Shown: positions 11,739 to 54,175, numbered from the stretch's first letter. The stretch: 64,000 nt of DNA from an uncultured Chloroflexia bacterium (GCA_963783135.1 CAWAMH010000006.1:21792-85791), one strand, 5' to 3'. A program made the numbers and translations. The notes: a model not told the origin generated them from the sequence alone.

Positions 11739-11744
11739 TAGAGT
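11739..11744 (+). promoter_or_regulatory. -10-like TAGAGT followed by the palindrome GGCGGACATCCGCC, upstream of the DUF5666 gene
   Basis: The 15-mer TAGAGTGGGCGGACA is shared with the guaA upstream region, where it reads TAGACTGGGCGGACA at 12775. Confidence 0.3.
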
Positions 11745-11771
11745 GGGCGGACATCCGCCTCGGAGATCCCC

Positions 11772-16041: not shown

Positions 16042-16124
16042 CCGTCGGCGCGGGCGACCGGTGGCGTCGGCACTGGGCGGCCCCGGCGGCCTTTGCCGGG
16101 CGCGCGGGGTAGACTCCGGGCCAC

Positions 16125-19100: not shown

Positions 19101-19451
19101 ACGCCGCGTCGCATCGTGTGGGGCACGACGCTCACCGAGGCGCTCCAGCTCCTGTTCGCGAGCGAGGGCACGCCGGGTGCTGGGCCATCCCCGAGCCCGA
19201 CACCCGGGCCCGGCGTCAGCCCCACGCCCGGCCCGGTGACGAGCCCGACCCCGAGCCCATCCGGCGGCCCGATCGCGAGTCCGCCCGGCGGCGACGTCGC
19301 CGCGCTCATCGCCTACGCGAACGAGCACTTCGACAAGGCCCAGACGGCGCTGCGCAACGGCGACTTCGCGACCTATGGGACCGAGATGGCGCTGGTCCAG
19401 GACGCGCTCCGACAGCTCGACGCGCTGGTCAAGACCAGCCCGGCGCCGTGA
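16125..19451 (+). CDS. UPF0182-family large membrane protein
   Basis: GTG start 9 nt after a TAGACT -10 element. The acidic N-terminus, the TM cluster FTLAGFILDLVTDAIWFKSVGYDGVFFIRIATQAALFV and the roughly 1100-aa length match the actinobacterial UPF0182 family. Confidence 0.8.
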   Translation: MKNMFDDFMEELRRRQEALAAGRDPDVPDPDARRAVDDAAEHATDEDDEPRADTDDDDDAVDADADETDDDREPQPVPLRPGSGGQRRPPGRRPAKVGGPDDGAPRTRDRARGIVVALVILAIVVFFTLAGFILDLVTDAIWFKSVGYDGVFFIRIATQAALFVGVFIAVLTFLGFNVWLAGRLAPPPDPERAGRVGELAARLGEAFGVDDSGIRGGGRTNFAGAGFGPGGARTITFEADDMPDLVPIARWGLIALTVFIALATAAAAAGQWETVQLWNNQVPFAPPGTPAVVDPNFGRDIGYYLFELPFLREIQGGLNGLLIAALVLSFGRYLIAGVRGGLVFTTQMRLHLAVLGGLYLLSVAWGYQLDKLELVYSVNLLGTQGGNFVGVAYTDQNARFLAFDVLTAVSAFAAAFLVIGAFTRAMWPLAAVIIIWFSASVVLGTVYPGLVQRFSVDPDQLNRETPYIGNNINMTRIAFDVGDWERRDYGGEAPLTPEAVTQEATTFQNARLWDYRPLKDSLDQLQTVRQYYIFTDVDTDRYDINDTRRQVMLSARELAPERNPQGGTWVNQRITFTHGIGVAMVPVNEATETGQPRLIIRDLPSTSLAGAPTIAQPRIYFGERPSDWIITGARQAEFDYPVGQTTTDGQLEPGQVTRWSGKTGVKLDTTLSRLLFALRFRDLNLLISDQVTADSQLLFHRSIGDRLPRIAPFLRYDKDPYMVVTADGGLVYIQDAYTVSDRFPDAQWLDPRSLPGASGFGGDAFNYLRNSVKIVMDAYTGDMSFYVSDPADPIVRTYQRIFPDLFKPLDQMPADLKAHLRVPEELFNAQTRTYARYHITDPAAFYNNEDLWTVPPDPGGTQSLPNEAYYVEMRMPGEPDPEFLLLQPMVPSTRPNMIAWIAARMDPNVYGTVRVYRFPQSTSVLGPTQIEAKIDADPVIAAQTTLWDQSGSTVIRGNLIVVPVQDSLIYLQPVYLQSANSAFPEFQRIIVATPRRIVWGTTLTEALQLLFASEGTPGAGPSPSPTPGPGVSPTPGPVTSPTPSPSGGPIASPPGGDVAALIAYANEHFDKAQTALRNGDFATYGTEMALVQDALRQLDALVKTSPAP

Positions 19452-26240: not shown

Positions 26241-26248
26241 GCGCCGGT

Positions 26249-26296
26249 CGGGAGCCCGGAGCCCGCCGGGTATACTGCTCGGGCTCTCCCGCCGGC
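26249..26296 (+). terminator. Possible stem-loop between cvpA and mreB (GAGCCCG...CGGGCTC). It also contains a TATACT -10-like hexamer.
   Basis: 7-bp inverted repeat with a 14-nt loop immediately after the cvpA stop. No U-tract follows, so this is weak evidence for a terminator. Confidence 0.2.
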
Positions 26297-26369
26297 TCGG
26301 CCGCGCGTCCCGCCTCCTCGGCGGACGGCCGCGCGACGCCAGCCTCATGCGAAGGACCTGCCCCGCACC

Positions 26370-27428
26370 ATGCTCGATCGGATCCTCGGCTACTTCTCCC
26401 GCGACATCGGGATCGACCTCGGGACCGCCAACACGCTGGTCCATGTCCGGAACCGCGGGATCGTCATGAGCGAGCCGAGCGTGGTCGCGATCGAGGCCAA
26501 GACGAAGAAGGTCCTGGCGATCGGGGCAGAGGCGAAGCGCATGGTCGGCCGGACGCCGGCCAACATCATCGCGGTGCGCCCGCTCCGCGACGGGGTCATC
26601 AGCGACTTCGACGTGACCGAGCAGATGATCAAGTACTTCGTGAACCGGGTCCACGACCGGGTCGGGCTCATCCCGCGACCGCGGATGCTGCTCGGCATCC
26701 CATCCGGCGTGACCGAGGTCGAGAAGCGGGCGGTCCGCGATGCCGCGCTCAACGCCGGCGCGCGCTGGGCGCGGCTCATCGAGGAGCCGATGGCCGCGGC
26801 GATCGGCGCCGGCCTGCCGGTCAGCGAACCATCGGGCAGTCTCATCGTCGACATCGGCGGTGGCACCACCGAGGTCGCCGTCATCAGCCTCGGTGGGATC
26901 GTCGTCGCCCGGAGCATCCGGATCGGCGGTGACGAGATGGACCAGGACATCGTCCTGTTCGCGCGGCGCGAGTACAACCTGTTCCTCGGCGAACGGACCG
27001 CCGAGGACATCAAGATCGCGATCGCCTCGGCCTACCCCGGCGAATGGGATGCCCAACGGGTCATGCTCCGCGGCCGCGACCTGCTGACGGGCCTGCCCCG
27101 CAGTGTCGAGGTCGGCGCCGACCAGATCCGCGAGGCGATCGAGCCGTCGGTCCAGCAGATCGTCGACACGATCAAGGACACGATCGAGGAGACCCCGCCG
27201 GAGCTCGTGGCCGACATCATGGACCAGGGCATCGTCCTGGCCGGTGGCGGCGCATTGCTCGCCGGGCTCGACCAGCGCATCGCGGAAGCGACCCAGATGC
27301 CGGTCCACATCGCGGACGACCCGCTCACCTGCGTCGCACGCGGGACCGGCATCGTCCTCGAGCAGCTGACGAACCCCGCGATGCAGCGCGTCCTGGTCGC
27401 CGACACGTACGCGCGGGCGCCGCGCTGA
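26370..27428 (+). CDS. mreB: Rod-shape-determining actin homologue MreB
   Basis: Full-length conservation: DIGIDLGTANTLV, phosphate-2 motif DIGGGTTEVAVISLGGIV, and GIVLAGGGALLAGLD. Confidence 0.95.
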   Translation: MLDRILGYFSRDIGIDLGTANTLVHVRNRGIVMSEPSVVAIEAKTKKVLAIGAEAKRMVGRTPANIIAVRPLRDGVISDFDVTEQMIKYFVNRVHDRVGLIPRPRMLLGIPSGVTEVEKRAVRDAALNAGARWARLIEEPMAAAIGAGLPVSEPSGSLIVDIGGGTTEVAVISLGGIVVARSIRIGGDEMDQDIVLFARREYNLFLGERTAEDIKIAIASAYPGEWDAQRVMLRGRDLLTGLPRSVEVGADQIREAIEPSVQQIVDTIKDTIEETPPELVADIMDQGIVLAGGGALLAGLDQRIAEATQMPVHIADDPLTCVARGTGIVLEQLTNPAMQRVLVADTYARAPR

Positions 27429-28423: not shown

Positions 28424-29191
28424 ATGAAGGGCATCGTCCTGGCCGGTGGGACCGCGACCCGGCTCTATCCGCTGACGATCGTCACCAACAAGCACCTCCT
28501 GCCGATCTACGACCGGCCGATGATCTACTACCCGATCGAGACGCTGGCCGGGATGGGGATCCGCGAGGTGATGGTCATCGTCGGCGGCAAGAGCGTCGGC
28601 GATGTCGTCGAGCTGCTCGGCGACGGCTCGACGTTCGGGCTCGACCTGACCTACCGCTACCAACCGGGCGCGCTGGGGATCGCCCACGCGATCGGGCTGG
28701 CCCGCGGGTTCGTCGGCGACGAGCCGTTCTGCTGCGTGCTCGGCGACAACATCCTGCGTGGCCCGGCGCTGGAGCCGATCGCTCGCGAGTTCACCGCGGG
28801 CCCGTGGGGCGCGGGGACGCTCCTCTACCGGGTCCCGGATCCCGAGCGGTTCGGGGTCGCCGAGCTGGACGCCGCCGGCAACGTCGTCGGGTTCGAGGAG
28901 AAGCCCGAGGCCCCGAAGAGCGACCTCATCCCGATCGGCGTCTACTTCCTGCGTCCCGATGCCTTCGCGGTCATCGAGCGGCTCGCGCCGTCCGGGCGGG
29001 GTGAGTTCGAGATCACTGACGTGCTGAATCACTACATCCCCGGCGGCGGGCTGTACAGCCGGGTCTTCGAGGGTCACTGGACCGATGCCGGGACGGTCCC
29101 TAGCCTGCTGCGCGCGGCGGAGCTCGCCGCCGAGGATCACGCCAACGGGCTCCTGGCGGATCCGCCCCAGCGGCCGATCGAGGGATCGTGA
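28424..29191 (+). CDS. rmlA: Glucose-1-phosphate thymidylyltransferase (short form)
   Basis: MKGIVLAGGTATRLYPLT signature at the N-terminus. Length of about 255 aa. Confidence 0.85.
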   Translation: MKGIVLAGGTATRLYPLTIVTNKHLLPIYDRPMIYYPIETLAGMGIREVMVIVGGKSVGDVVELLGDGSTFGLDLTYRYQPGALGIAHAIGLARGFVGDEPFCCVLGDNILRGPALEPIAREFTAGPWGAGTLLYRVPDPERFGVAELDAAGNVVGFEEKPEAPKSDLIPIGVYFLRPDAFAVIERLAPSGRGEFEITDVLNHYIPGGGLYSRVFEGHWTDAGTVPSLLRAAELAAEDHANGLLADPPQRPIEGS

Positions 29192-30354
29192 CGGACGCCG
29201 CCTCCGCGCAGCCGTGGAGCGCGCCCGGCGTGCGGCTGCTCGTGACCGGCGGAGCCGGGTTCATCGGGTCGTGCTTCGTCCGGGAGGTCCTCGGGCGGCA
29301 TGACGGGACCCGGATCGCCGTCCTCGACACGCTGACCTACGCGGGCAATGAGGCGAACCTCCGGACGGTCTTCGACGATCCCGAGCAGGCCGCCCGGTTG
29401 ACGTTCGTCCGGGGCGACATCGCCGACCCGGTCGTCGTCGCACCGCTCGTCGCCGACGCCGACGCCGTCGTCAACTTCGCGGCCGAATCGCACGTCGATC
29501 GGTCGATCCTCGATCCCGAGGCGTTCCTGCGGACTGGGGTCATCGGCGTCCATGTGCTCCTCGAGGCGTGCCTGGCGGCTGCGCGCGGCGGTCGGCCCGT
29601 GCGCTTCCTCCAGGTGTCGACGGACGAGGTCTACGGCTCGGTCGAGACCGGACGCTCGGTCGAGACCGATCGGCTTGCGCCGCGCTCGCCGTATGCCGCG
29701 GCCAAGGCCGCCGGCGAGCTGCTCGTTCGGTCGTACGTCGTGACCCACGGGGTCGATGCGGTCGTGACCCGCGGATCGAACACGTACGGGCCGTACCACC
29801 ACCCGGAGAAGCTCATCCCGCTGTTCATCACGAACGCGCTCGACGATCAGGCCCTGCCGCTGTACGGCGACGGGCTGCAGATCCGCGACTGGCTGTACGT
29901 CGCCGACCACGCGGCGGGGATCGAGCACGTCCTCCGCCACGGGCGCGCCGGCGAGACCTACAACCTGCCCGGTGGGCTCGAGCTCCCGAACCGCGACGTC
30001 GTCCGGCGGATCCTCGAGCGGCTGGGCAAGCCATGGTCGCTCGTACGCCAGGTCGCCGACCGTCCCGGCCACGACCGTCGCTACGCGATGGACGGGTCGA
30101 AGATCGCCGAGCTCGGCTGGCGGCCGCGCGTCGGCTTCGACGTCGGATTGACGGCGACCATCGACTGGTTCGTCGCGAACGAAGCGTGGTGGCGGGCGAT
30201 CAAGGCCGACGAGTGGGATGCCTACTACGAGCGCCAGTACGGGGCCAGGCTCGCCGGGTCGACGGCCGCGGCGGTCGATCCCGCGGACGGCCACGCGGGC
30301 GCCGGATCCGTCGGGCCGGCTGGCGTCGCCGGGACGCGCGCCGAGGCGGACTGA
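29188..30354 (+). CDS. rmlB: dTDP-glucose 4,6-dehydratase
   Basis: Rossmann motif TGGAGFIGS, the YAAAKAAGE active site and a VSTDEVYG motif. Confidence 0.9.
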   Translation: MTDAASAQPWSAPGVRLLVTGGAGFIGSCFVREVLGRHDGTRIAVLDTLTYAGNEANLRTVFDDPEQAARLTFVRGDIADPVVVAPLVADADAVVNFAAESHVDRSILDPEAFLRTGVIGVHVLLEACLAAARGGRPVRFLQVSTDEVYGSVETGRSVETDRLAPRSPYAAAKAAGELLVRSYVVTHGVDAVVTRGSNTYGPYHHPEKLIPLFITNALDDQALPLYGDGLQIRDWLYVADHAAGIEHVLRHGRAGETYNLPGGLELPNRDVVRRILERLGKPWSLVRQVADRPGHDRRYAMDGSKIAELGWRPRVGFDVGLTATIDWFVANEAWWRAIKADEWDAYYERQYGARLAGSTAAAVDPADGHAGAGSVGPAGVAGTRAEAD

Positions 30355-32140: not shown

Positions 32141-33061
32141 GTGCGTCCGATCGCGGCTGCGGCCGTCATCAGCCTGCTCATCGTGGCCGGCTTCGCCGTG
32201 CCTGGTGTCGCTGCGGCCAGCCCGCAACCGAAGGTCGTCATCATCGTCGGACCCGTCGATTCGTCGACGGCGTCGTACAAGGCCGATGGGGATGCCGCCT
32301 ACGCCGAGGCGCTCAAGTACACGACGAACGTCGTCAAGGTCTACACCCCGAACGCGACCTGGGCGGCCGCCAAGAAGGCGATGCAGGGCGCGTCGATCGT
32401 CATCTACATGGGCCACGGCAACGGCTTCCCGAGCCCGTACCGGACGAGCCCGTGGCCGTACTCGCAGAACGGCCTCGGGCTGAACCCGAAGGCCGGTGGG
32501 AACAACAGCACGACCGAGTATTACGGCGAGTACTACCTGGCCAAGGAGGTGGACCTCGCGCCGAACGCGATCGTCCTCCTCAGCCATCTCTGCTACGCGT
32601 CGGGCAACAGCGAGTCCGGCCAGCCGAAGCCGACCCTGACCCAGGCCAAGCAGCGCGTCGACAACATGGCGGCCGGCTGGCTGAAGGCGGGCGCCCGGGC
32701 GGTCGTGGCCGAGGGCCACTTCGGGCCGGCCTGGTACGTGCACCAGCTGTTCACGACCCAAGAGACCGTCGACCGGATCTTCCACGACTCGCCGACCTTC
32801 AACGACAACGCCTTCACCTTCGCCTCGACGCGCACGAAGGGAGCCACGGCCGAGATGGACCCCGACGGCACGCCGGGTGGCTACTGGCGCGCGCTGACGG
32901 GCTGGCTGGATACGAAGACCGACGACATCATCGGGGCGACCTACCTCGGCACGATCGAGTCCAAGGCGACCGGCACGGCCGGGACCGTGCGCTCCTCGGT
33001 CAGCGGCACGGAAGCCGCCGGCGACGTCGACCGCGAGTCGAGGGCCTTCGCCCGGCGCTGA
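32141..33061 (+). CDS. Secreted protein. Candidate caspase-fold (clan CD-like) cysteine peptidase: 'YMGHGNG' and 'LSHLCYASG'.
   Basis: GTG start followed by a signal peptide (IAAAAVISLLIVAGFAVPGVAAA). The His-Gly ... Cys arrangement resembles the catalytic dyads of C11/C13/C25 peptidases. This call is inference only. Confidence 0.4.
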   Translation: MRPIAAAAVISLLIVAGFAVPGVAAASPQPKVVIIVGPVDSSTASYKADGDAAYAEALKYTTNVVKVYTPNATWAAAKKAMQGASIVIYMGHGNGFPSPYRTSPWPYSQNGLGLNPKAGGNNSTTEYYGEYYLAKEVDLAPNAIVLLSHLCYASGNSESGQPKPTLTQAKQRVDNMAAGWLKAGARAVVAEGHFGPAWYVHQLFTTQETVDRIFHDSPTFNDNAFTFASTRTKGATAEMDPDGTPGGYWRALTGWLDTKTDDIIGATYLGTIESKATGTAGTVRSSVSGTEAAGDVDRESRAFARR

Positions 33062-33117
33062 GCGACCGGCTCGCACGCGCGGGGAACGCCCGGACGACCG
33101 CGCGCCCGCGCCCTGGG

Positions 33118-33265
33118 GCATGGCACGCCGCGCGCCGCTCGAACGGGGATCGAGCCTGCGGAGGGCCCGGGCTGTGCGTGGCACGCTCGAACGGCGATCG
33201 AGCCCTGCGGGAAGCTCTTGGCTGTGCGTGGCACGCTCGAACGGGGGGACGAGCGGGGCGTCGGA
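33118..33265. repeat. Three tandem, imperfect ~50-60-bp direct repeats (TGGCACGCTCGAACGG[C/G]GATCGAGCC[C]TGCGG...GCTGTGCG) inside a 525-nt leader upstream of the GH18 gene
   Basis: Direct reading of the sequence: copy 1 at about 33118-33178, copy 2 at about 33179-33228, and a partial copy 3 at about 33229-33265. Confidence 0.6.
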
Positions 33266-33586
33266 CCGCACGTCGGCCGCGGTCCATGCCGAGCTGAGCG
33301 TGGTGCGGGAGGATCACGGGCCCCATAACGGCCTTCGGAGGCCGTCCGGCGCTGCTCGGCCCCGCACTCGAGCGCAGGGTGCACATGAGGACTCGGATCC
33401 GCGAGACGGGCACGCCGCAAGAGAGCGGCTCGGCGCGCACGCCCCGGGGCAAAGCGCCGGCCCTGTGTGACCCCACTCGAGCGCACCTGACGCCACCGTA
33501 CCCGTCCGGACCGGGACCTTCGGGCGATGGTCCCGCCCGCCCGCCCGCACGTACGGTCAGCGCCTGACCGCAGCCGAGGAGGTCCC

Positions 33587-36500
33587 GTGACCGACGACCG
33601 CGTCCGACCGTGCACGGCAGCACCGACCGATCGTCGGGCCGTGCAGCCGCTCCGTCGCGCCGCACAACGCGTCGGCGCCGGGCTGCTCGCCGTGGCGCTC
33701 CTGGCCGAGCTCGGGTCGTCGGCGGCACAGGCCGTGAACCCCTCGATCGCCACCGCCGGCCCGCGCACCGCCGGCGCGGCGAGCGGACGATCGACGTCGC
33801 CGGCCGTCCAGGCCCGGGACGACGGGCCGGCGGGAGCCGAGTCGACCCGCGTCGAGGCGGCGCAGCGGCGCGCGGCTCGGACCCCGGTCCCCGACGGACC
33901 CGCGACCCAGGAGCCGTCGATCATCGCCCTCGATGCCGAGGCGCACGCGCACGACCGGATCGCCTTCCCGCCGGGCGCCCGGGTGACCGTCCCGTTCGTT
34001 CCGCGGCTCGATGACGGGTGGTCGGTCGGCGGAGCCGCACCCCAGCGGCTGCCGGCCGGTGCGGCATCCGGCCGGGCGATGGCGCTGGCCGCCCAGGGCT
34101 CGGTCTGGGCCCATGGATCCATGGCGGCGGAGGCACGGGACGCGACCACGGACCCGACCGCCGACCCCGTCGGGGAGCATCCGATCGACGGGCCGGCCGG
34201 CACCGCCGCGCCGGCGGCCGATCCGGTCTCGGTGGTCGTGCCCGCGCCCGATGTCGCGGACCCGCCGGCCGCCACCGACCTCCGTCGCCAGGTCTTCGGG
34301 TTCCTGCCCTATTGGGAGCTGTCGGACTCATCGACCCGACTGGACTACCAGCTGCTCTCGACCGTGGCCTACTTCGGGGTCGGCGCGGAAGCCGACGGCG
34401 ATCTGCGCAAGCGGGACCGAGACGGGTCGATCTCGGTCGGCTGGGCGGGCTGGACGAGCTCGCGGATGACCTCGGTCATCCGGGCCGCGCACAAGCGTCG
34501 GACACGGGTCGTCCTGACGGTCCAGTCGTTCGCGTGGACCTCGAGCCAGGCCGACACCCAGTCCGCGCTGCTCGGGAGCGCGGCCGCCCGCCAGCGGCTC
34601 GCCCGCCAGATCGCGGCGGCGGTCCGTGACCGGGGCGCCGACGGGGTGAACCTCGACTTCGAGCCGCTCGTCTCCGGCCGGGCCGATGAGTTCGTCGCGC
34701 TCGTCCGGTCCGTCCGCGCCGCCCTCGACAAGGTCCACAAGGGCTATCAGGTGACGTTCGACACGACCGGCTCCATCGGCAACTACCCGATCGAGGCCGC
34801 CACCGCGCCCGGCGGCGCCGACGCGATCTTCGTCATGGGCTACGACTACCGGACCGCATCCGCGAGCTCCGCCGGGTCGATCGCCCCGCTCGGCGGTCCC
34901 GGGTACGACCTCGTCGATACGATCCTCGCGTTCACCGACCGGGTCTCGCCGAGCAAGCTCATCCTCGGCCTCCCGTATTACGGTCGGGCCTGGTCGACCA
35001 CGTCGAACAAGCCGCGGGCCGCCACGCGGACCGGCGCGAAGTACGGTTGGTCGTCGTCGGTCACCTACGCCAACGCCGTCGCGCTGGCCAAGAAGCACCA
35101 CCGACGCTACGACCGGCGCGACGCCTCCGCCTGGTTCGCCTACAAGCGTCGGAACTGCACGGCGACGTACGGCTGCGTGACGACCTGGCGCGAGGTCTAC
35201 TACGACGACGTCCAGAGCCTCCGGGCGAAGTACGACACGATCAATCGCTACGGGCTGCGCGGGGCCGGGATCTGGGCGCTCGGCTACGAGGATGCGCGAC
35301 CGGAGCTGGCCAAGGTGATCGTCGCCAAGTTCCTCCACGACACGACACCGCCCGAGACCGGGATCGATGTCCTGCCCGCGCATCAGGGTGACGAGGGATT
35401 CGTCGTGGGCTGGTCGGCGCTCGACATGAACCCGATCCGCGGCTACGACGTCCAGGTGTCGATCGACGGCGGGCCCTGGCGAGCCTGGCTGACCAGGACG
35501 AAGGCGACCCAGGCCGTCTGGCTCGGGCGGAGCGCCCACGCCTATGCGTTCCGGGCGCGAGCGACCGATGCGAAGGGCAATCGCGGCACGTGGGACATCG
35601 CCAGCCTGCCGAGCCCCCGACCCACGCTCCACAAGGGCGGGTTCGCGACCGTTCGGACGGGCTCCCTGACCGTGCGCAGCCGACCCGACACCTCGAGCGG
35701 CGCCGTCAGCCAGCTCGAGCGCGGCGACGTCGTGGCGATCACCGGCGGCCCGGTCGCCGCCGACGGCTACACCTGGTTCAAGATCAGCGGGCCGCTCCGG
35801 TCCTGGGGGCCGACCGAACCGGTCCGGACCGGCGTGTGGGTCGCCGGGCGCAACGGGTCGACCACGTATCTCACGCCGCGGACGCCACCGAACACGACGA
35901 TCGTCGCCGCCGGGATCGCCGGGCTGACCTTCGGAGCCGGTGGATCGGGGTCCGTCGGCTCGTCCGAGGCGGCGAAGGCCGCGCGCGCGTTCTCGCCGAA
36001 CGGCGACACCTCCGAGGATCGCCTGACCCTGCGCTGGACGAACGCCCTCGCCTTCGACAGCCTGACGCTCCGGGTCTTCCGGCCGACCGGCACGCTGCTC
36101 GGCACGCGAGCGGTGACGGCGACCGGTGCGGGCGCGCAGGCGTGGGCCTGGGACGGCTCCATCGGCGGCCACCGACTCGCCGATGGACGCTACCTCGTCC
36201 AGCTCGTCGGCCGCGCCGATGGGCACACCTACACCGCACCGTTCCGGCCGCTGCTCGCCGCCCAGGTCGCCGCGTACGCGGTCACGATCGACACGGTGCG
36301 CCCGAGGCTCACGAGCGCCGCGATCGGTGGCCACCTGGTCTCGCCGCTGCGCGACGGACGACACGATGCCGTCGCCGTCAGCGGGGCGTCCAGCGGGGCG
36401 ACCCGCTGGCGACTCACCGTCGCTGCATCGAGCGGACCGAGCCCTGGCGCCGTCATCCGGACGATCGCTGGGCGCGGCGGTCGACCCAGGACCTCGTGGG

Positions 36501-37510
36501 ACGGCCGGACGGACGCTGCCAGCCCGGCTCGCGACGGGCGCTACCGCGTCAGCCTGGCCGTCCTCGACGCTGCCGGCAACTTCGCGACCCGGTCCTGGAC
36601 GGTCGTCGTGGATGGGACCGCGCCGACGACGAGTGTCTCGACCGAACCGGCATCGATCTCGCCCGACGGCGACGGCGCGGCCGATAGCGCCGTGATCCGC
36701 TGGGCAGCCGCCGAGCCGGCGAAGGTGACGACTCGGATCTACCGCGGCACGCGGCTTGTGCGGACCTACGCGGGCGGCGGCACGTCCAAGGCGGGCGCGA
36801 CCCGTTGGGACGGCCGGACGCGGGCGAAGACGCGCCTCGCCGACGGCACCTACCGGGCCGTCCTCACCGCCCAGGATCCGGCCGGCAACCGACGCGCCAC
36901 CAGCGTTACGATCCGGCTCGACCGGACCGCCGGTTGGCTGCGCTGGGCACCGACGGCTTTCTACCCACAGGACGGTGACCGGCTCGCCCGGACGAGTCGC
37001 GCGACGTTCAAGCTCGCCCGGGCCGCACGGACGTCGCTCACGATCGTCGACACCGGCGGCCATGTCGTCCGCACGGCCTGGACCGACCGGAAACGGGCCG
37101 CCGGGACCGTCCGCTGGCGGTGGGACGGTCGTGCGGCAGGTGGCGCGATGGTCGCCCCGGGCACCTATGCGCTGGTCCTGAGCGCACGAAGCGGCTACGG
37201 CACGACGGTCCTGCGCCGGGCGATCGTCGTGGACGCCTTCGCGATCTCGCTGTCCTCGACGAAGCCGAAGGCCGGCCGGCCGCTCGTCGTCTCGTTCCGA
37301 TCGACCGAGCCGCTGTCGAGCCGGCCGATCGTCACCCTGGACCAGACCGGTCGCCCGCCGGTCCGGAAGATCGCCACCCCGGTCGGTCCCGATCGGTTCA
37401 CGGTCCGGTTCGTCGTCGCGGCCGGGCGCGGGCCGGCGACGATCACGGTCAGAGCCACCGACGGAGCCGGTCACCGGAACGCGTCGACCTCGAGGCTGGC
37501 GGTCCGCTAG
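33587..37510 (+). CDS. Large secreted GH18-family (YaaH/SleL-like) glycoside hydrolase with an SH3b domain and four FlgD-Ig-like domains
   Basis: GAGGAGG ribosome-binding site plus a GTG start. Arg-rich signal peptide RRAAQRVGAGLLAVALLAELGSSAAQA. GH18 motifs FGFLPYWE, DGVNLDFEP, IFVMGYDY and LILGLPYYGRAW. SH3b domain (GFATVRTGSLTVRSRPDTSSGAVSQLERGDVVAI...YTWFKI). Four repeats of FlgD-Ig type (FSPNGDTSEDRLTLRW, ISPDGDGAADSAVIRW, FYPQDGDRLARTSRATF and others). Confidence 0.8.
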   Translation: MTDDRVRPCTAAPTDRRAVQPLRRAAQRVGAGLLAVALLAELGSSAAQAVNPSIATAGPRTAGAASGRSTSPAVQARDDGPAGAESTRVEAAQRRAARTPVPDGPATQEPSIIALDAEAHAHDRIAFPPGARVTVPFVPRLDDGWSVGGAAPQRLPAGAASGRAMALAAQGSVWAHGSMAAEARDATTDPTADPVGEHPIDGPAGTAAPAADPVSVVVPAPDVADPPAATDLRRQVFGFLPYWELSDSSTRLDYQLLSTVAYFGVGAEADGDLRKRDRDGSISVGWAGWTSSRMTSVIRAAHKRRTRVVLTVQSFAWTSSQADTQSALLGSAAARQRLARQIAAAVRDRGADGVNLDFEPLVSGRADEFVALVRSVRAALDKVHKGYQVTFDTTGSIGNYPIEAATAPGGADAIFVMGYDYRTASASSAGSIAPLGGPGYDLVDTILAFTDRVSPSKLILGLPYYGRAWSTTSNKPRAATRTGAKYGWSSSVTYANAVALAKKHHRRYDRRDASAWFAYKRRNCTATYGCVTTWREVYYDDVQSLRAKYDTINRYGLRGAGIWALGYEDARPELAKVIVAKFLHDTTPPETGIDVLPAHQGDEGFVVGWSALDMNPIRGYDVQVSIDGGPWRAWLTRTKATQAVWLGRSAHAYAFRARATDAKGNRGTWDIASLPSPRPTLHKGGFATVRTGSLTVRSRPDTSSGAVSQLERGDVVAITGGPVAADGYTWFKISGPLRSWGPTEPVRTGVWVAGRNGSTTYLTPRTPPNTTIVAAGIAGLTFGAGGSGSVGSSEAAKAARAFSPNGDTSEDRLTLRWTNALAFDSLTLRVFRPTGTLLGTRAVTATGAGAQAWAWDGSIGGHRLADGRYLVQLVGRADGHTYTAPFRPLLAAQVAAYAVTIDTVRPRLTSAAIGGHLVSPLRDGRHDAVAVSGASSGATRWRLTVAASSGPSPGAVIRTIAGRGGRPRTSWDGRTDAASPARDGRYRVSLAVLDAAGNFATRSWTVVVDGTAPTTSVSTEPASISPDGDGAADSAVIRWAAAEPAKVTTRIYRGTRLVRTYAGGGTSKAGATRWDGRTRAKTRLADGTYRAVLTAQDPAGNRRATSVTIRLDRTAGWLRWAPTAFYPQDGDRLARTSRATFKLARAARTSLTIVDTGGHVVRTAWTDRKRAAGTVRWRWDGRAAGGAMVAPGTYALVLSARSGYGTTVLRRAIVVDAFAISLSSTKPKAGRPLVVSFRSTEPLSSRPIVTLDQTGRPPVRKIATPVGPDRFTVRFVVAAGRGPATITVRATDGAGHRNASTSRLAVR

Positions 37511-37549: not shown

Positions 37550-38386
37550 GTGACGGTCGAGTCCTCTGGTCCAGTCGCGCATGCCGACGAGGTGATCGTG
37601 ACGATCTCACCCCTTCCGGTGCCCGATCCCAGCTTGCCGGTCGGGACGGGCGCATGGGTCGTGCTGCCGACCTTCAACGAGGCGGAGAACCTCGGTCCGA
37701 TCGCGACGGCGATCCTCGAGCAGCTCCCGGGGGCGACCCTCCTCGTCGTCGACGACGGCTCGCCCGATGGCACCGGAAAGCTCGCCGACGACCTCGCCGA
37801 CGACGACCCTCGGGTCCGGGTCCGGCATCGCAGTTCGAAGCAGGGGCTGGGCCGGGCATATCTCGACGGTTTCGGGGTCGCGATCGCCGGTGGCGCGGGC
37901 ATCGTCGTCCAGATGGACGCCGACTTCAGCCACGACCCGTCGATCCTGCCGAGCCTGATCGCGCCGATCGGCGCCGACGAGGCCGACCTGGTCATCGGCT
38001 CACGCTACGTCGCGGGTGGCGGCGTCCGCGACTGGGGCATCGTCCGCCGCGTCATCTCGCGCGGTGGCAGCCTCTTCGCACGGGTGGTCCTCGGGCTCAA
38101 GCCGCACGATCTCACCGGCGGGTTCAAGGCCTGGCGCTCGTCGACCCTGGCTGGGATCCCGTTCGACGGCGTGCATGCCGGCGGGTACGTGTTCCAGATC
38201 GAGATGACCTACCGGGCAAGCCGTCTGGGGGCGCGCGTGACCGAGGTGCCGATCGTCTTCCAGGATCGGCGCGCGGGCCAGTCGAAGATGTCGCGCCGGA
38301 TCATCGTGGAGGCGCTGATCGTCGTCCTCACGCTGCGCTGGGACGAGCTGCGCGGTCGAGGTCCCCGCCCGAAGGATCGGGCCTGA
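37550..38386 (+). CDS. Polyprenol/dolichol-phosphate mannosyltransferase (GT2, Ppm1/DPM1-like)
   Basis: VVLPTFNEAENL, VVDDGSPDGT, QMDADFSHDP and GSRYVAGGG motifs. Length of about 270 aa matches actinobacterial Ppm1. Confidence 0.8.
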   Translation: MTVESSGPVAHADEVIVTISPLPVPDPSLPVGTGAWVVLPTFNEAENLGPIATAILEQLPGATLLVVDDGSPDGTGKLADDLADDDPRVRVRHRSSKQGLGRAYLDGFGVAIAGGAGIVVQMDADFSHDPSILPSLIAPIGADEADLVIGSRYVAGGGVRDWGIVRRVISRGGSLFARVVLGLKPHDLTGGFKAWRSSTLAGIPFDGVHAGGYVFQIEMTYRASRLGARVTEVPIVFQDRRAGQSKMSRRIIVEALIVVLTLRWDELRGRGPRPKDRA

Positions 38387-38395
38387 GCGTCGCCG

Positions 38396-39618
38396 TCAGA
38401 CGGCGAACCGACTCGGCGCCGACGCCCCGCTCGGCGACGGGCTCGGCGAGACGCCGGGGGATGCCGCGGGCGGAGGCGCACCCTTGGTGATCGTGACCTT
38501 CGTCCCGGTCGGCATGACGTTGATGAACGTCTGACCGGCCGTGAGGGTCACCTCCTGGCCGGCCGCGTCGTAGAACTTCGTCGGGCCGGTGAGTGACTTC
38601 TTCCGCCAGGTGCCCTTGATCGTCCGGCCGTTCGTCGAGATCCAGGCGATGCCGCTGCCGATGACCTTCGCCTCGAGACGATGCTTCGGGCTGCCGTCGT
38701 TGAGCGGCCCGAAGCGCATCAGCATGACGATCACGTTCTTCGGTGCGACCCGCTTCTTCGTCGCCGCATCCTTCTGCTTGCCCTCGACGCTGACCGAGCG
38801 CAGGTACGTGTTCGTCTCCCGGTTGTACTCGTAGCGGATCGAGCTGGTCGGGTAGGCGAAGCTGATCCTGCCGCCGACGGGGCGCGCCTCGAGCGGCGCA
38901 TCCGGCGCGAACTGCCAGATCGGCTGGTAGTCCCGCGCCTTCGCCCCGAGCCGCCTGGCGAGCGCGTCGAGCTGCTTGCCGGTCGTGTACAGGTTGTGCG
39001 GCGCGAACCGATTGCAGACCCGCCGGAACGTCCCGGCCCAGCGGAACTCGTCGGCGTTGTAGACGAGCTGGCCGTTGCCCTTGGCCGCCAGGGTCTTCAT
39101 CGCCTGGGGTGATCCACCGGCATGGGCGTAGACCGCCCGCCACTCGGCCGCCCAGGCGATGTAGTAGTAGCGCGAGCTCCGGACCGGGCCCACGTCGGTC
39201 GGCCGGTTCTCACCGAAGACCATCATGTAGCGCGGGATGCCGCCTTCGGCCGGTGCCTGCCAGACGATCGACGCCGAGCTGAACCCGGATTGCGGGCGGG
39301 CGGGCGAGAGGTCGTCGATCATCACCGCGATCGGATGGCGTCGGGCGGCGGCCGGCAGTGACCGGCAGGCCGGTCAGCGGCGCAGGCACGAGGATCGGGC
39401 GTGGGTTCCGGCGTCGGCGTCGGCAGCGGCGTCGCCGTCGGGCTCGGCGTGGATGACGGGCTGCTCGTCATCGAGGGTGGTGGCGCCGCGCTCGGTGAGG
39501 CCGGGAGGCTCGCGATGGCCGGCTGACTGGGGGTCGAGCTGCCACAGGCGCCGGCGAGCACGCCGACGACCAGGGCGAGGGCCGACCAGCGCAGCGGGAC
39601 CACGACTCGGAACGGCAT
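38396..39618 (-). CDS. DUF3048 (YerB-like) lipoprotein, with an apparent frameshift between the lipobox/linker and the domain near 39330-39400
   Basis: ORF 39322..39618 supplies the lipobox LAGACGSS and a Pro/Ser/Thr linker. ORF 38396..39325 supplies the DUF3048 core (DDLSPARPQSGFSSASIVWQAPAEGGIPRYMMVF). Confidence 0.6.
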
Positions 39619-40270: not shown

Positions 40271-41473
40271 ATGTTCGTCGTCACCCGATCTGGAGTGGAG
40301 CCCGGAGGCACCGTGATCGATCCGTCCGCGCGCAGCGCGAGCGCGCACGTGATCCCGGCGGTGCGGCCCGACGTGGGGCCGGAGGAGTCGGCTGCGGTCG
40401 CCGACGTGCTCCTGTCGGGCGCGACCCAGCCGGGTCGGCGGGTCGACGAGATCGAGGCGCGCTGGGCCGACTACGTCGGGGTCCGTCACGCGGTCGCGGT
40501 GGTCAACGGGACCGTGGCCCGGATGTGCATCCTGGCCGGCATCGGGATCGGACCGGGCGACGAGGTCGTGACCGTCAGTCACACCGTCAATGCCACGGTC
40601 AGCTCGATCCTGTTCACCGGGGCCAGTCCGGTCTTCGTCGACATCGAGCCCGACACGTACCTCATCGACGCCGCCCGGATCGAGGCCGCGCTCACCGCCC
40701 GGACGCGGGCGATCTATCCCGTCCATCTCCACGGGCTCGTGGCCGACATGGACATGATCAGCGCGATCGCCGATCGGCACGGACTGGCGGTCGTCGAGGA
40801 CGGCGGTGGCTCGCACGGGGCGACGTTCCGCGGCCGTCGGGCGGGATCGTGGGGCCATGGCGCATTCGGGCTGTACGGTGCCGGCGAGGGCGGCCTGATC
40901 ACGACCGACGACGACCGCCTCGCCGATTGGATCCGCCGCTACCGCGACCACGGCCGACGCGGCCGCCAGGCCGAGATCCTCGGGTTCGACTTCCGCCTCT
41001 CCGAGGTGGCGGCGGCGATCGGGCTCGTCGGACTCGACCGGCTCGGGTCCGGGATCGCCGCCCGGCGGACCATCGCGGCCCGCTACGACGCGGCGTTCGC
41101 CGACCTGCCGATCCGCCGGCCGCTCGTGCCCGTCGGTCGCAAGCACGTCTTCCATCGCTACACGATCGGTCTCGGATCGGCCCGGGATGCGGTCGCCGCC
41201 GAGCTGGCCGAGCACGGTGTCGAGGTGGCGATCGAGTACCCCGTCCCGATCCACCGCCAGCCGTACGTGCTCGAACGGGGCATCGACGCGGACCTGCCGG
41301 TCACCGACGCGGCCGCCGAAGGCTCGCTCGGCCTGCCGATCTACGCCGGGTTGACCAGTGACGACGAGCGACGCGTCGTCGACGCGGTCCGCGAGGCCGT
41401 CGGTCGTCACGTGAGCGAGCCGGTCCGCGTTCCCAGCCGGGCGCGGGCCCGGGCCACGCCCGCCCGACCGTGA
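40271..41473 (+). CDS. DegT/DnrJ/EryC1/StrS-family sugar aminotransferase homologue lacking the PLP-binding lysine segment
   Basis: Fold-type I aminotransferase conservation across the whole length (AVVNGTVARMCILAGIGIGPGDEVVTVSHTVNAT, AIYPVHLHGL). Where the conserved 'FSFxPxKNL' block should be, the sequence reads GAFGLYGAGEGG, with no lysine. An alternative start is the GTG near 40349. Confidence 0.7.
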   Translation: MFVVTRSGVEPGGTVIDPSARSASAHVIPAVRPDVGPEESAAVADVLLSGATQPGRRVDEIEARWADYVGVRHAVAVVNGTVARMCILAGIGIGPGDEVVTVSHTVNATVSSILFTGASPVFVDIEPDTYLIDAARIEAALTARTRAIYPVHLHGLVADMDMISAIADRHGLAVVEDGGGSHGATFRGRRAGSWGHGAFGLYGAGEGGLITTDDDRLADWIRRYRDHGRRGRQAEILGFDFRLSEVAAAIGLVGLDRLGSGIAARRTIAARYDAAFADLPIRRPLVPVGRKHVFHRYTIGLGSARDAVAAELAEHGVEVAIEYPVPIHRQPYVLERGIDADLPVTDAAAEGSLGLPIYAGLTSDDERRVVDAVREAVGRHVSEPVRVPSRARARATPARP

Positions 41474-50663: not shown

Positions 50664-51968
50664 ATGAACGAAGACCGTCGCCTGGCCGTGATCGGCCTGG
50701 GCTACGTCGGGCTCCCGCTTGCCATCTCGTTCGTCGAGGCGGGGCTGGAGGTCGAGGGCGTCGACGCCCACCCGGGCCGGATCGCCGAGCTGAGCGCCGG
50801 CCGATCGCCGATCGACGACATCCCCGACGACCGTCTGACCGGGGCGCTCGCCGCGGGCCTCCGGCTGGTCGGGACGGATGCGGCCCGCCTGACCGAGGCG
50901 GATGTGATCTTCGTCTGCGTCCCGACCCCGATCGATCAGGCCAAGGACCCCGATCTCGGCCCGGTCCTGTCGGCGGCCGAGCTCATCCGGCGCCATCTCC
51001 GGAAGGGCCAGCTCATCATCCTCCAGTCGACGACGTTCCCCGGGACGACGACCGGTCCCTTCCGCAAGGTCCTCGAGCAGAGCGGCCTCATCGCCGGACG
51101 GGACTTCGATCTCGCCTTCGCGCCCGAGCGGGTGAACCCGGGCGATCCGGCCAGCGCCGCCAAGGACGTCCCGCGTCTCGTCGGCGCGACGACGCCCGAG
51201 GCGACCGACCGGGCGGCCGCGCTTCTCGGCCGGATCAACAACCACGTCGTCAAGCTGTCGTCACCCGATGCCGCCGAGCTGGCGAAGATCCTCGAGAACG
51301 TCTTCCGGAACGTGAACATCGCGCTCGTCAACCAGCTCGCGCTGCTCTGCGAGCGGATGGGCATCGACGTCTGGGAGGTGATCTCGGCCGCCGCGACCAA
51401 GCCGTTCGGGTTCATGCGCTTCACGCCGGGTCCGGGCGTCGGCGGGCACTGCATCCCGGTCGACCCGTACTACCTCGCCTGGCGGGCACGCGAGTTCGAC
51501 TTCGTCGACCGCTTCGTCGAGCTCGCCGGCGACATCAACTACGCGATGCCGCGCCACGTCGTGGACCTCGTCGCCGAGGCGCTCAACGATCGGGGCAAGG
51601 CGCTCAAGGGCGCCCGGGTCGGTGTTCTCGGGGTCGCGTTCAAGCCGGGTGTCCGCGACGCGCGGAACTCGCCGGCCGCCGCGATCCTGGCCGGCCTGGC
51701 GACCCGAGGTGCGGTCGTCGATTACCACGACCCGCACGTCCCACGGTTCCGCGACACCGACGGCGTCGCGCGCGATTCGGTCGGGCTCGATGCGGTCCTC
51801 GCCGACAGCGACGTGGTGGTCGTCGTGACGGCCCACCGTGAGATCGACTGGGACCGCGTCTACGGGTCCGCCGGACTCGTCGTGGATACGGTCGACAGCT
51901 CGCGCGGCCGGACGGCCACCGACCGCCAGGTGCTCCGGCTCGGCGCCGGCTGGACGGTCCGGGCGTGA
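50664..51968 (+). CDS. wecC: UDP-N-acetyl-D-mannosamine dehydrogenase (nucleotide-sugar dehydrogenase family)
   Basis: Rossmann motif IGLGYVGLPLA, catalytic region GFMRFTPGPGVGGHCIPVDPYYL, and a GGAGGA ribosome-binding site. The adjacent wecB suggests the product is UDP-ManNAcA. Confidence 0.8.
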   Translation: MNEDRRLAVIGLGYVGLPLAISFVEAGLEVEGVDAHPGRIAELSAGRSPIDDIPDDRLTGALAAGLRLVGTDAARLTEADVIFVCVPTPIDQAKDPDLGPVLSAAELIRRHLRKGQLIILQSTTFPGTTTGPFRKVLEQSGLIAGRDFDLAFAPERVNPGDPASAAKDVPRLVGATTPEATDRAAALLGRINNHVVKLSSPDAAELAKILENVFRNVNIALVNQLALLCERMGIDVWEVISAAATKPFGFMRFTPGPGVGGHCIPVDPYYLAWRAREFDFVDRFVELAGDINYAMPRHVVDLVAEALNDRGKALKGARVGVLGVAFKPGVRDARNSPAAAILAGLATRGAVVDYHDPHVPRFRDTDGVARDSVGLDAVLADSDVVVVVTAHREIDWDRVYGSAGLVVDTVDSSRGRTATDRQVLRLGAGWTVRA

Positions 51969-54175
51969 GCGGGACGGGAACCCAGCCGGGCGACGCCCGG
52001 GCCGACGAGCTGACGATGACCTCCGCCGACCTGTCGCTCGAGCGGAAGCTGAGCCTGTTCATCCTGGCGATCACGCCGATCCTGTTCCTGGTCTTCCTGG
52101 CGCTGACACCGCCGGTCAACCCGACGTTCGACGACGCCAAGTACATCGGCGTCGGCCGCAACTTCCTCGACGGGAACGGCCCGACGACCGTCTTCGGGGT
52201 CGTCTTCCTCAAGCACTCGCCGCTGTGGCCGATGATCATCGTGATCCCCGAGAAGCTGTTCGGGATCCACCCGGTCGCGACCGGCCACTTCATCAACGCG
52301 GTCAGCGGCGCCCTGACGATCGTCCTCGTCGGCTTCCTCGGCTGGCGGGTCCGGCCGGCGATCGGCGCCGTGGCGGCGGTCCTCTTCGCCGCGCTGCCGT
52401 ACGTCTTCGACATCGCCCGGACCGCCGGCATCGACCTGCCATCGATCGCCCTGACCCTGCTCTACATCATCGTCGGCTTCAGCGTCGTCCGGACCGGATC
52501 GATCTGGCGGGCGATCGTCCTCGGGGGGATCTTCGCGGCCGCATTCCTGATCAAGGAGACGATCCTGCCGTTCGCGGTCGTTCCGTTCATCCTCGGGATG
52601 ATGTGGGGCGTGTCCTGGACGAACCTGGCCAGGACCGCGGCGGTGACCCTCGCGACCGCGGCCGTCGGGATGTCGTGGTGGTTCGTGATGTACGCGGGCT
52701 ACACGCAGGAGGTCTACCGGGCCGACTTCCCGGAGTGGACGCTGATCCCGAGCGCGTTCGCGGTCGTCGTCTTCCTCATCCTCGGGCTGGCTGCGGGGCC
52801 GATCGCCCGAGCGATCGACCGTCGTGGCTGGGACGCTCGGGTGGCCGCCCGACTCCCCGGTCGGCTCCGGAGCCGGACGTTCCTCGGCTGGACGGCCGTC
52901 CTCGTCTGGTTCGTCCTCCTGACGATCTTCTTCGGCCGGACGCCGAAGCTGCTCGGCGCCTCGCTGTTCGACCCGCGCCAGCTCTACTACATGGTTGTGA
53001 ACTCGCTCGGCTCGGTCCGCCTGGCGTTCGCCTACGGACTCGGGACGTTCCTGCTCGTGGCCGAGCTCATCCGCGATCGGCGGCGGGTCGCCCAGGCCAG
53101 CATCGATGCACTCGTGCCGATGCTCTGCGGGATCCCGCTCGTGCTGCTCGTCGTCGGGGTGGGCGAGACGCCGCGGCACTACATCGCCGAGCTCGCGCTG
53201 ATCATCCTGACCGGCACGATCGGCTGGTATCACGGCCTGATCCGGCTCCGAGAGCGCGATCGGTTCATGGCCGCGCTGTTCACGGGGCTCGTCGTCCTGG
53301 CCGCCGTCATCCTCGCCCTGTCGACGCTCCAGCGGATCACCCCGAAGGTGATCGTCGCGGGCATCGTCGGCCTCGTCGTCCTGGCGGTGGCCGCGGTCGT
53401 CGTCGTGACCGTGCTCCGGCGGCGCGGCCGGCTGTCCGCGATCGGCGTGGTCGCGCTCGGGGCCATCTTCGTGCTCGCGATCGGGACTGTCGGCGTTCGC
53501 GCGATCCGCCTGCCGGGCACCACCAGCGCCAACGAGATCAAGGCGACCGCCGATACGATCGCCTGGCTGAAGGCGAACGTGCCCAAGGGCGCCACCGTCG
53601 CATTCGGGCCGTACCTCAGCATGGAGACCTCGATCGACATCCCGGCCGGCTACAAGGCGATCCAGGTCCGGCACTACCTCGCGATCGAGGACCCGAAGGC
53701 GCCGCTCGGACTGCGCAGCGCGACCGGTACCGCCACGGACTACGTCGCCGTCGATACCGCCCCGATCAAGGCGAACCAGTTCAACGTGTACGCGTCCAGC
53801 CTCATCACGCGACTGATGAAGGACGGGAACGCGCTGTACTACGTCTATCCGGTCACCCGGGCGCGATCGTCGAAGGAGGTCCTCAACGTCCTCACCCCGG
53901 AGAACGGCTTCACCGAGGTCGACACCCGGACGTACGAAGGCCCGAGCGACACGATCGACGTCCACACCTACAAGGTGGACCTCGACAAGCTGGCCATCCC
54001 GACCGACAAGATCTACGTGGCGGCCGACGCGCTCGACCGCCTCGTGACCAGCCTCGAGGCCGACCCGACGAACGGCGCGACCGCGGCCGGCAACCTGCTC
54101 GATCGGGTCGTCCGGCCGGCCGACGGCTCGGAGGACGCGCTCCTCGCTCGGCTCAAGACGCTGGCGGGTCGCTGA
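51965..54175 (+). CDS. Polytopic membrane glycosyltransferase of GT-C type (ArnT/PMT/EmbC-like, 12 or more TM helices) with a C-terminal extracytoplasmic domain
   Basis: GTGA overlap with wecC. The N-terminal helices match GT-C topology, with an early periplasmic loop (FDDAKYIGVGRNFLDGNG). A soluble domain of about 200 aa lies at the C-terminus. A polyprenol-P-mannose synthase is encoded in the same locus. Confidence 0.6.
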   Translation: MSGTGTQPGDARADELTMTSADLSLERKLSLFILAITPILFLVFLALTPPVNPTFDDAKYIGVGRNFLDGNGPTTVFGVVFLKHSPLWPMIIVIPEKLFGIHPVATGHFINAVSGALTIVLVGFLGWRVRPAIGAVAAVLFAALPYVFDIARTAGIDLPSIALTLLYIIVGFSVVRTGSIWRAIVLGGIFAAAFLIKETILPFAVVPFILGMMWGVSWTNLARTAAVTLATAAVGMSWWFVMYAGYTQEVYRADFPEWTLIPSAFAVVVFLILGLAAGPIARAIDRRGWDARVAARLPGRLRSRTFLGWTAVLVWFVLLTIFFGRTPKLLGASLFDPRQLYYMVVNSLGSVRLAFAYGLGTFLLVAELIRDRRRVAQASIDALVPMLCGIPLVLLVVGVGETPRHYIAELALIILTGTIGWYHGLIRLRERDRFMAALFTGLVVLAAVILALSTLQRITPKVIVAGIVGLVVLAVAAVVVVTVLRRRGRLSAIGVVALGAIFVLAIGTVGVRAIRLPGTTSANEIKATADTIAWLKANVPKGATVAFGPYLSMETSIDIPAGYKAIQVRHYLAIEDPKAPLGLRSATGTATDYVAVDTAPIKANQFNVYASSLITRLMKDGNALYYVYPVTRARSSKEVLNVLTPENGFTEVDTRTYEGPSDTIDVHTYKVDLDKLAIPTDKIYVAADALDRLVTSLEADPTNGATAAGNLLDRVVRPADGSEDALLARLKTLAGR

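Follow-up and report, generated by a model that had tools for sequence, protein, structure and literature searches.

The 64,000-nucleotide stretch of DNA analysed here, referred to as the window, comes from an uncultured Chloroflexia bacterium (GCA_963783135.1 CAWAMH010000006.1:21792-85791). At 33587..37510 on the plus strand it carries a gene for a 1307-residue, predicted secreted protein of glycoside hydrolase family 18 (GH18), set among mreBC, rml, and glycosyltransferase genes. An open reading frame at 33527..37510 spans the gene, which opens with a GTG codon 5 nucleotides downstream of a GAGGAGG Shine-Dalgarno sequence. The GC fraction is 0.90 at third codon positions and 0.63 at second positions, as expected of a real gene in surrounding DNA of 72% GC. 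The product read from GTG 33587 is the public protein P0407, initiator residue aside, so the coordinates that an earlier note had drawn from the sequence are exact and the gene is real and intact. An exact-sequence look-up of the window's own proteins matched no record. Existing annotation already identifies the gene as GH18, and the chemistry is of an ordinary kind. The points of interest are its active-site variant, its architecture, and its fixed place in what is probably a wall-biogenesis locus.

The catalytic domain, a (beta/alpha)8 barrel at residues 232-585 (34280..35341), is recognized by Pfam, by profile comparison with PDB sequences, by Foldseek, and in the structure models. Glyco_hydro_18 (PF00704) reaches 99 bits (cut-off 29.6) and matches all 38 orthologues scanned. 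Strands and helices alternate in the model over residues 235-583. A Foldseek search against the PDB returned 227 matches at E <= 0.001, and all 50 of those listed have the GH18 fold. The barrel also carries an alpha+beta insertion with invariant Cys524 and Cys530, consistent with an extracytoplasmic disulfide.

The catalytic motif reads DGVNLDFE (34640..34663), which places Asp352, Asn355, Asp357, and Glu359 in the active site. It is accompanied by MGYDY (from 34835) and LGLPYYGR (from 34964), and all three are present as the earlier note had them. The Asn stands where the canonical DxxDxDxE motif has its second Asp. A sequencing error at its AAC codon, named beforehand as the point on which the variant could fall, is ruled out because Asn occupies this position in 120 of 120 orthologues; the residue is genuine. 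In the 135 nearest motif-bearing representatives of 50%-identity clusters, the position holds Asn in 124, Ser in 6, Asp in 4, and Ala in 1, and Phe precedes the catalytic Glu in 122. As judged from these sequences, DG[VI]N[LIV]DFE is a clade signature, and the distinct Asn-bearing GH18 clade that it marks is new.

The full canonical motif is not found in the protein, and its SxGG motif is replaced by S-V-F-A (SVFAW). The catalytic Glu (E359), the adjacent Asp (D357), Tyr419 and Asp420 of the MxYD motif, and the Trp of strand beta8 (W563) are all kept. In alignments of 63 and 38 orthologues, D352, N355, D357, E359, M417-R422, and W563 are invariant. The enzyme is probably active, because every residue needed for substrate-assisted catalysis (D357, E359, Y419, D420, and W563) is among those that do not vary.

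Two AlphaFold2 models, built from 63-sequence alignments with mean pLDDT (predicted local distance difference test) values of 82.1 and 91.0, show the barrel followed by seven all-beta modules. The protein begins with a predicted Sec signal peptide at residues 1-49 (33587..33733), which has an RR-rich n-region, a hydrophobic helix at residues 21-39 that also appears in the model, and an AQA at residues 47-49. These features point to secretion by the Sec route. Next comes a conserved segment at residues ~106-190 (33902..34156), seen in the alignment and the model and flanked on both sides by disordered, Ala/Pro-rich linkers. It has no Pfam match. Across 63 sequences F127, G130, P139, D143, P152, L155, and G162 are invariant within it, and pLDDT is 81-95 over residues 121-170 before dropping to ~50-60 by residue 190.

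Behind the barrel lies an Fn3-like beta-sandwich at residues 590-665 (35354..35581), which has no Pfam match and is defined by the model strands and by alignment with the Fn3 region of the chitinase ChiA74 (6BT9). It is followed by an SH3b-like domain at residues 686-777 (35642..35917), all-beta in the model with a block pLDDT of ~80-97. SH3_3 (PF08239) falls short of its 27-bit cut-off here with the whole protein as query (24.3 bits) and exceeds it with the isolated segment (29.3 bits). Four FlgD-Ig-like sandwiches occupy 35984..37231 (residues 800-900, 907-1008, 1015-1111, and 1115-1215). FlgD_ig (PF13860) matches these four stretches with 86 bits in sum and 28.7, 21.0, 21.2, and 42.5 bits singly, two of them below the 27-bit cut-off, and is matched in 38 of 38 orthologues; the model has four sandwiches with block pLDDT mostly 83-96 in the model whose mean is 91. 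A further beta-sandwich closes the protein at residues 1218-1306 (37238..37507). It is defined by the model, and the long form of the protein encoded upstream ends in the same domain. Foldseek matches of the C-terminal half are to generic tandem beta-sandwich arrays, including Ig domains, macroglobulins, adhesin extender repeats, and streptococcal envelope proteases.

The four FlgD-Ig folds of the earlier note are thus present in both the Pfam scans and the models, and its SH3b domain is probably right as well. Its list is incomplete, having missed the Fn3-like sandwich, the C-terminal sandwich, and the conserved N-terminal segment. Its picture of an enzyme displayed far from the membrane is conjectural. 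No anchor is visible at either end of the protein, whose catalytic head is N-terminal. No chitin-binding module of the CBM5/12/2/73 type was found at E <= 0.1. The architecture of GH18, Fn3-like, SH3b, four FlgD-Ig, and C-terminal domains is new and uncharacterised.

A search of a 5.8-billion-protein collection found 1380 homologues. The best 120 share this architecture at 48-98% identity, most being ~1250-1330 residues long and a few shorter, and those with names belong to Chloroflexota, mostly Candidatus Limnocylindrales. IMG labels orthologues as 'spore germination protein YaaH/flagellar hook assembly protein FlgD', with one record of 'chitinase', and NCBI labels them as 'glycosyl hydrolase family 18 protein'. 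With one genome taken per species, 508 loci encode a relative, and the best 80 are almost all labelled Chloroflexota/Limnocylindria. The window accordingly derives from a member of Candidatus Limnocylindria, a mostly uncultured class of Chloroflexota that is widespread in soil and freshwater and is represented largely by metagenome-assembled genomes; 282 of its genomes, with a median size of 2.39 Mbp and 68.9% GC, have been described (PMC10608941). No published description of the Limnocylindria envelope was found.

In the window the gene order runs cvpA, mreB (26241-27428), mreC, rmlA, rmlB (29188-30354), rmlD, rmlC, an orphan gene (32141-33061), and the GH18 gene. Downstream are a GT2 glycosyltransferase gene (37550..38386, plus strand), a DUF3048 gene (38396-39325, minus strand), a DegT aminotransferase gene (40271-41473), and more glycosyltransferase genes. 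The earlier note had placed the GH18 gene directly upstream of a glycan locus; it lies instead inside that locus, with rml genes before it and glycosyltransferases after it. The GT2 protein scores 100 bits in Pfam and resembles polyprenyl-phosphate sugar synthases; its NCBIfam matches are weak and fall far below the cut-off (AglJ 51, PpgS 46, and dolichyl-phosphate hexose transferase 38.5 bits). Its gene starts 39 nucleotides past the GH18 stop codon, a gap so short that the two are probably co-transcribed. A 777-residue PMT_2-like GT-C protein is encoded further along, at 51842-54175. Together, the GT2 and PMT_2-like proteins suggest extracytoplasmic glycosylation from a lipid-linked sugar, with a wall polymer or secreted proteins as the acceptor.

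This order is near-invariant in species-representative genomes. Among the 80 best species loci, counting for each gene only loci with enough flanking DNA, MreB is present in 47 of 47, MreC in 49 of 49, RmlA and RmlB each in 43 of 49, RmlD in 45 of 54, the upstream orphan in 59 of 63, GT2 in 62 of 64, and DUF3048 in 55 of 55, giving the arrangement mreB-mreC-rmlABDC-(orphan)-GH18-GT2-DUF3048. Four related contigs with precomputed Pfam annotation have the same order together with an ABC2-type exporter, and one of them has a UDP-GlcNAc (N-acetylglucosamine) 2-epimerase. More distant GH18 proteins of the DGVNLDFE type (P0204 and P0199, ~45% identity) are encoded in a different conserved context, between P-type ATPase and TrkA_N genes, so the link to the wall locus is specific to the group of 1300-residue orthologues. 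These distant proteins form a second DGVNLDFE-type group, 590-775 residues long and with no Ig stalk (L085:10001-12325 and L086:10001-11779). The class-wide genetic link of the GH18 gene to mreBC, rml, and an orphan wall enzyme is new. Unrelated genes elsewhere in the window encode an S33-type alpha/beta hydrolase (9836-11647), a DUF5666 protein (11742-12746), and a large membrane protein of the UPF0182 family (16113-19451, 833 bits).

The orphan gene immediately upstream (32141..33061, plus strand) encodes 306 residues with a weakly C25-like Cys/His head. Neither Pfam (E <= 0.01) nor NCBIfam yields a match to the protein, and its head has no PDB match, even by profile. Two blocks of the head, GHGNGxPSPY and LCYASGNSE, are invariant, and Peptidase_C25, the gingipain family, weakly matches 13 of 21 members over the His/Cys region (best E 9.2e-5). 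Most loci encode a longer version of ~740-800 residues (long forms include L005:7218-9569 and L037:6879-9302). The C-terminal ~400 residues of the long form align with those of the GH18 protein at 30% identity (BLASTP, E 7e-37), and the shared stretch comprises the last three FlgD-Ig domains and the C-terminal sandwich. A profile hidden Markov model of the C-terminal domain, built from GH18 orthologues and run on 1.6 Mb of flanking DNA, matched only the GH18 protein and the upstream protein.

The window copy is a short form without the stalk. An in-frame internal deletion has joined the head to the last ~38 stalk residues (32939-33061), and most related loci keep a stalk of ~450 residues with SH3-like and FlgD-Ig modules. 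Short forms also occur in L001, L017, L019, L045, and others. Since the long form shares the GH18 stalk, the ancestral locus would have encoded a pair of secreted enzymes whose heads differ but whose stalks are paralogous. This head also occurs elsewhere in Limnocylindria in fusions to SLH, CW_binding_2, DPBB+SH3_3, or FlgD_ig modules. The fusions to SLH, CW_binding_2, and DPBB+SH3_3 argue for a wall-targeted enzyme family, and the upstream protein probably represents a new family of secreted, wall-targeted cysteine enzymes. Just 3' of its stop codon, at 33136-33244, lie three direct repeats at a spacing of ~48-50 nucleotides with the core CGCTCGAACGGsGATCGAGCC / GGCTGTGCGTGGCACGCTCGAACGG. The repeats start within a block common to a 98%-identical strain (L001), and the BLAST match to that strain is gapped over most of the repeat region.

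In the noncoding stretch before the GH18 gene, only 33469-33586 is conserved among loci. An alignment of this block from 18 loci has three sets of invariant columns on the plus strand: CCGTAC (33496-33501), GGGAC (33513-33517), and TAnnnT, a -10-like hexamer that reads TACGGT in the window (33552..33557) and lies 30 nucleotides 5' of the start codon. Elements of the c-di-AMP/ydaO type were expected here from their occurrence before actinobacterial wall hydrolases, and the earlier note had described a structured leader. RNAalifold on the 18 loci gave no consensus structure (-1.9 kcal/mol) and 0 covarying pairs. No Rfam family reached its gathering score in the window, and at E <= 1 the region 32900-33800 returned only a chance SECIS match. 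With both analyses empty, a riboswitch or other structured RNA leader is rejected. The invariant blocks, taken with the lack of RNA structure, covariation, and an Rfam match, fit a promoter and an upstream operator or regulator site better than an RNA element, and such a site is probably what the block contains. Scans for a sigma-70 consensus promoter and for terminators gave nothing useful. Descent of the leader from a decayed remnant of the upstream gene's stalk is unsupported, as that remnant sits inside the 3' end of the upstream gene itself.

The earlier note had regarded DGVNLDFE as characteristic of the YaaH/SleL group of spore-cortex enzymes. SleL is a peptidoglycan N-acetylglucosaminidase, and the candidate GH18 wall hydrolases of Bacillus subtilis are YaaH/SleL, YdhD, YkvQ, and YvbX (PMC10653849). 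The motif is not a hallmark of this group. The aligned residues are RDIHFDFE in SleL of B. megaterium and B. cereus, GGVTIDFE in B. subtilis YdhD, DGVVIDFE in 4WIW, and SGINVDFE in 5JH8, and a fungal (Rhizomucor) GH18 protein deposited as a chitinase, 5XWF, has DGLNLDWE. Among the solved GH18 proteins compared, only 5JH8 and 5XWF share the exact Asn of the window motif. Here the spore-type group resembles the window protein in two respects only, the missing second Asp and the Phe that precedes the Glu. Because the Asn also occurs in 5XWF, it says little about substrate.

Membership of the spore-type group is likewise unproven. When the family profile is run against PDB sequences, 4WIW (85.5 bits) and YdhD (75.6 bits) are the two best solved matches, in line with the earlier assignment. 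Several chitinases follow at 69-46 bits, and SleL and YaaH score below many chitinases, YaaH (4S3K) at 40 bits, as does 5JH8 at 38 bits. A small neighbour-joining tree of the core region, which included five spore-type and three chitinase sequences, resolves three clades. The window protein falls in a Chloroflexota clade of its own and outside the spore-type clade, which is supported in 99.5% of bootstraps, and the chitinases stand apart from all the rest at 100%. Foldseek against the PDB does not separate spore-type enzymes from chitinases, and NCBIfam offers no specific GH18 sub-family name. A literature search on COG3858, cd02874, DUF3048, and vegetative GH18 autolysins found nothing relevant.

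Taken together, these observations make it moderately probable that the protein is a secreted hydrolase of the beta-N-acetylhexosaminidase type that acts on the envelope glycans of its own cell, most likely the GlcNAc-MurNAc (N-acetylmuramic acid) strands of peptidoglycan. The argument for wall remodelling comes from gene context and not from the motif. The cell-wall role put forward in the earlier note is the best reading, and what favours it is the near-invariant mreBC-rml-glycosyltransferase synteny and the shared stalk. The presence of an SH3b-like domain, the lack of a detected chitin-binding module, and the identity of the nearest solved relatives by family profile, 4WIW and YdhD, both without the second Asp, add to it. 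The enzyme would first be exported by Sec. Its N-terminal barrel would then cleave beta-linked GlcNAc by the usual GH18 substrate-assisted route, as SleL does on peptidoglycan. Glu359 would serve as the acid/base and Asp357 would position the N-acetyl group, with Tyr419, Asp420, and Trp563 forming the -1 site and Asn355 taking over from the usual second Asp in hydrogen bonding to Asp357. Through its SH3b domain and the ~600-residue chain of beta-sandwiches, the enzyme may be held in the wall or span it. The neighbouring Cys/His enzyme is probably its partner, a putative peptide-cutter beside a glycan-cutter, so that the two would function like a split bifunctional autolysin. On this proposal the GH18 enzyme would be a housekeeping component of a Limnocylindria envelope module.

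Several observations weigh against a peptidoglycan hydrolase. The Asn at the second-Asp position occurs in a fungal protein deposited as a chitinase, and the top Foldseek matches are chitinases. The window protein forms its own clade, 20-30% identical to both spore-type enzymes and chitinases. SH3_3 is sub-cut-off in the whole-protein scan and was found in 17 of 38 orthologues (E <= 0.001), and the protein has no LysM (E <= 0.1) or other classic peptidoglycan module. Finally, the proximity of rml and glycosyltransferase genes would suit a wall polysaccharide as substrate just as well as peptidoglycan. Many polysaccharide loci have a glycosidase of their own, such as PslG, PgaB, or BcsZ, and the enzyme may be a dedicated hydrolase that trims or releases a wall polysaccharide containing GlcNAc or another N-acetyl-amino sugar, made by the surrounding rml, glycosyltransferase, and ABC-transporter genes. 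This is a possible but rather unlikely explanation. Its attraction lies in the position of the gene between the rmlC side and the polyprenyl-phosphate-sugar-synthase-like GT2, in the downstream DegT aminotransferase, GT4 genes, ABC2-type exporter, and, in some loci, UDP-GlcNAc 2-epimerase, in the PMT_2-like GT-C, and in the near-invariance of the whole arrangement. The SH3b domain speaks for another target, as such domains typically bind peptidoglycan, and the varied wall-binding fusions of the partner family suggest general wall work. GH18 catalysis also requires a 2-acetamido sugar at the -1 site, which the polymer, of putative composition, would have to supply.

The resemblance to chitinases raises the alternative of a nutritional chitinase or chitodextrinase that is secreted to degrade environmental chitin and uses its Ig-like and SH3-like domains for spacing or binding. 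The best Foldseek match, ChiA74, has the GH18 and Fn3 arrangement in common with the window protein, the protein is as similar to chitinases (24-29% identity) as to spore-type enzymes, 5XWF carries the Asn under a chitinase label, and one IMG record names an orthologue 'chitinase'. Such a role is unlikely, given that no CBM5/12/2/73-type module was detected, that SxGG has given way to S-V-F-A, and that the canonical second Asp is absent across the clade. The four Pfam-annotated loci hold no chitin-uptake or GlcNAc-catabolism genes, while the mreBC-rml-glycosyltransferase setting recurs, and near-universal conservation at one fixed locus across a class would be unusual for a nutritional enzyme. 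The barrel could also bind glycan with slow or no turnover after loss of the second Asp, as in chi-lectins, making the protein mainly a structural or lectin-like envelope scaffold. Non-catalytic beta-sandwich makes up about two thirds of the protein, and the engineered D140N replacement of the second Asp strongly impairs Serratia ChiB; the structure of that mutant, 1GOI, is among the matches here. In chi-lectins, however, the Glu, the neighbouring Asp, or both are lost, whereas E359, D357, Y419, and D420 are invariant here. Natural GH18 enzymes that lack the second Asp can be active, as is the glucosaminidase SleL (PMC10653849). The second Asp is therefore dispensable for activity within the GH18 family, as SleL shows, and a lectin-like scaffold is highly improbable. 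The natural Asn-for-Asp clade offers a useful test of how far the second catalytic Asp can be dispensed with.

A last proposal concerns the stalk that the two proteins share. The locus might encode a monoderm counterpart of the PorU system of Bacteroidota, in which the C25-like enzyme, as a sortase-like transpeptidase, would recognize the shared C-terminal sandwich and covalently attach both the GH18 enzyme and itself to an amino-sugar-containing wall polysaccharide produced by the same locus. The shared C-terminal domain, the weakly C25-like head, and the conserved DegT aminotransferase and glycan genes nearby are consistent with such a system. The C-terminal domain occurs on only two proteins in the DNA sampled, which weighs on the idea, and it is very doubtful. 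Under the preferred reading of a wall-remodelling hydrolase, the module of GH18 enzyme, orphan Cys/His neighbour, and mreBC-rml-glycosyltransferase genes supplies concrete candidates for how Limnocylindria may cut and rebuild their wall.

Among known systems, the spore-type enzymes SleL/YaaH and YdhD (4S3J, 4S3K, and 3CZ8; COG3858) share with the window protein a GH18 barrel with an alpha+beta insertion, the loss of the second Asp of DxxDxDxE, the xDFE sequence, and a conserved MxYD motif and beta8 Trp. At the second-Asp position the window protein has Asn, whereas SleL has His and YdhD has Thr. SleL and YaaH bear LysM repeats; the window protein has none, and it has no sporulation setting, its neighbours being mreBC, rml, and glycosyltransferase genes. 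It is also three times larger, with the added Fn3-like, SH3b, four FlgD-Ig, and C-terminal domains. The best solved match, Desulfitobacterium hafniense 4WIW (70.5 bits by sequence and 85.5 by profile), has DGVVIDFE and GIPYYGRDW, very near the motifs of the window protein. It differs in having Val at the second-Asp position, in its ~30% identity in the core, and in belonging to the spore-type clade; as a structural-genomics entry it lends no functional evidence. ChiA74 of Bacillus thuringiensis, the top Foldseek match (E 4e-23), is likewise a secreted enzyme with a GH18 barrel followed by an Fn3-like domain, the alignment extending to profile position 634. It has the canonical DGVDLDWE and SVGGW and a chitin-binding module, in contrast to the DGVNLDFE and SVFAW of the window protein, in which no chitin-binding module was found and whose context is wall biogenesis.

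For the Limnocylindria pair as a whole, bifunctional Gram-positive autolysins such as Staphylococcus Atl, an amidase joined to a glucosaminidase, offer no more than a working analogy, as the sequences are unrelated. In Atl a single polypeptide bears the GH73 and Amidase_2 heads together with GW/SH3-like repeats, whereas the Limnocylindria pair consists of two genes, with a GH18 head and an orphan C25-like head whose activities are putative. What the two systems share is that glycan-cleaving and putative peptide-cleaving enzymes are encoded together, with the same wall-targeting repeat module on each enzyme.

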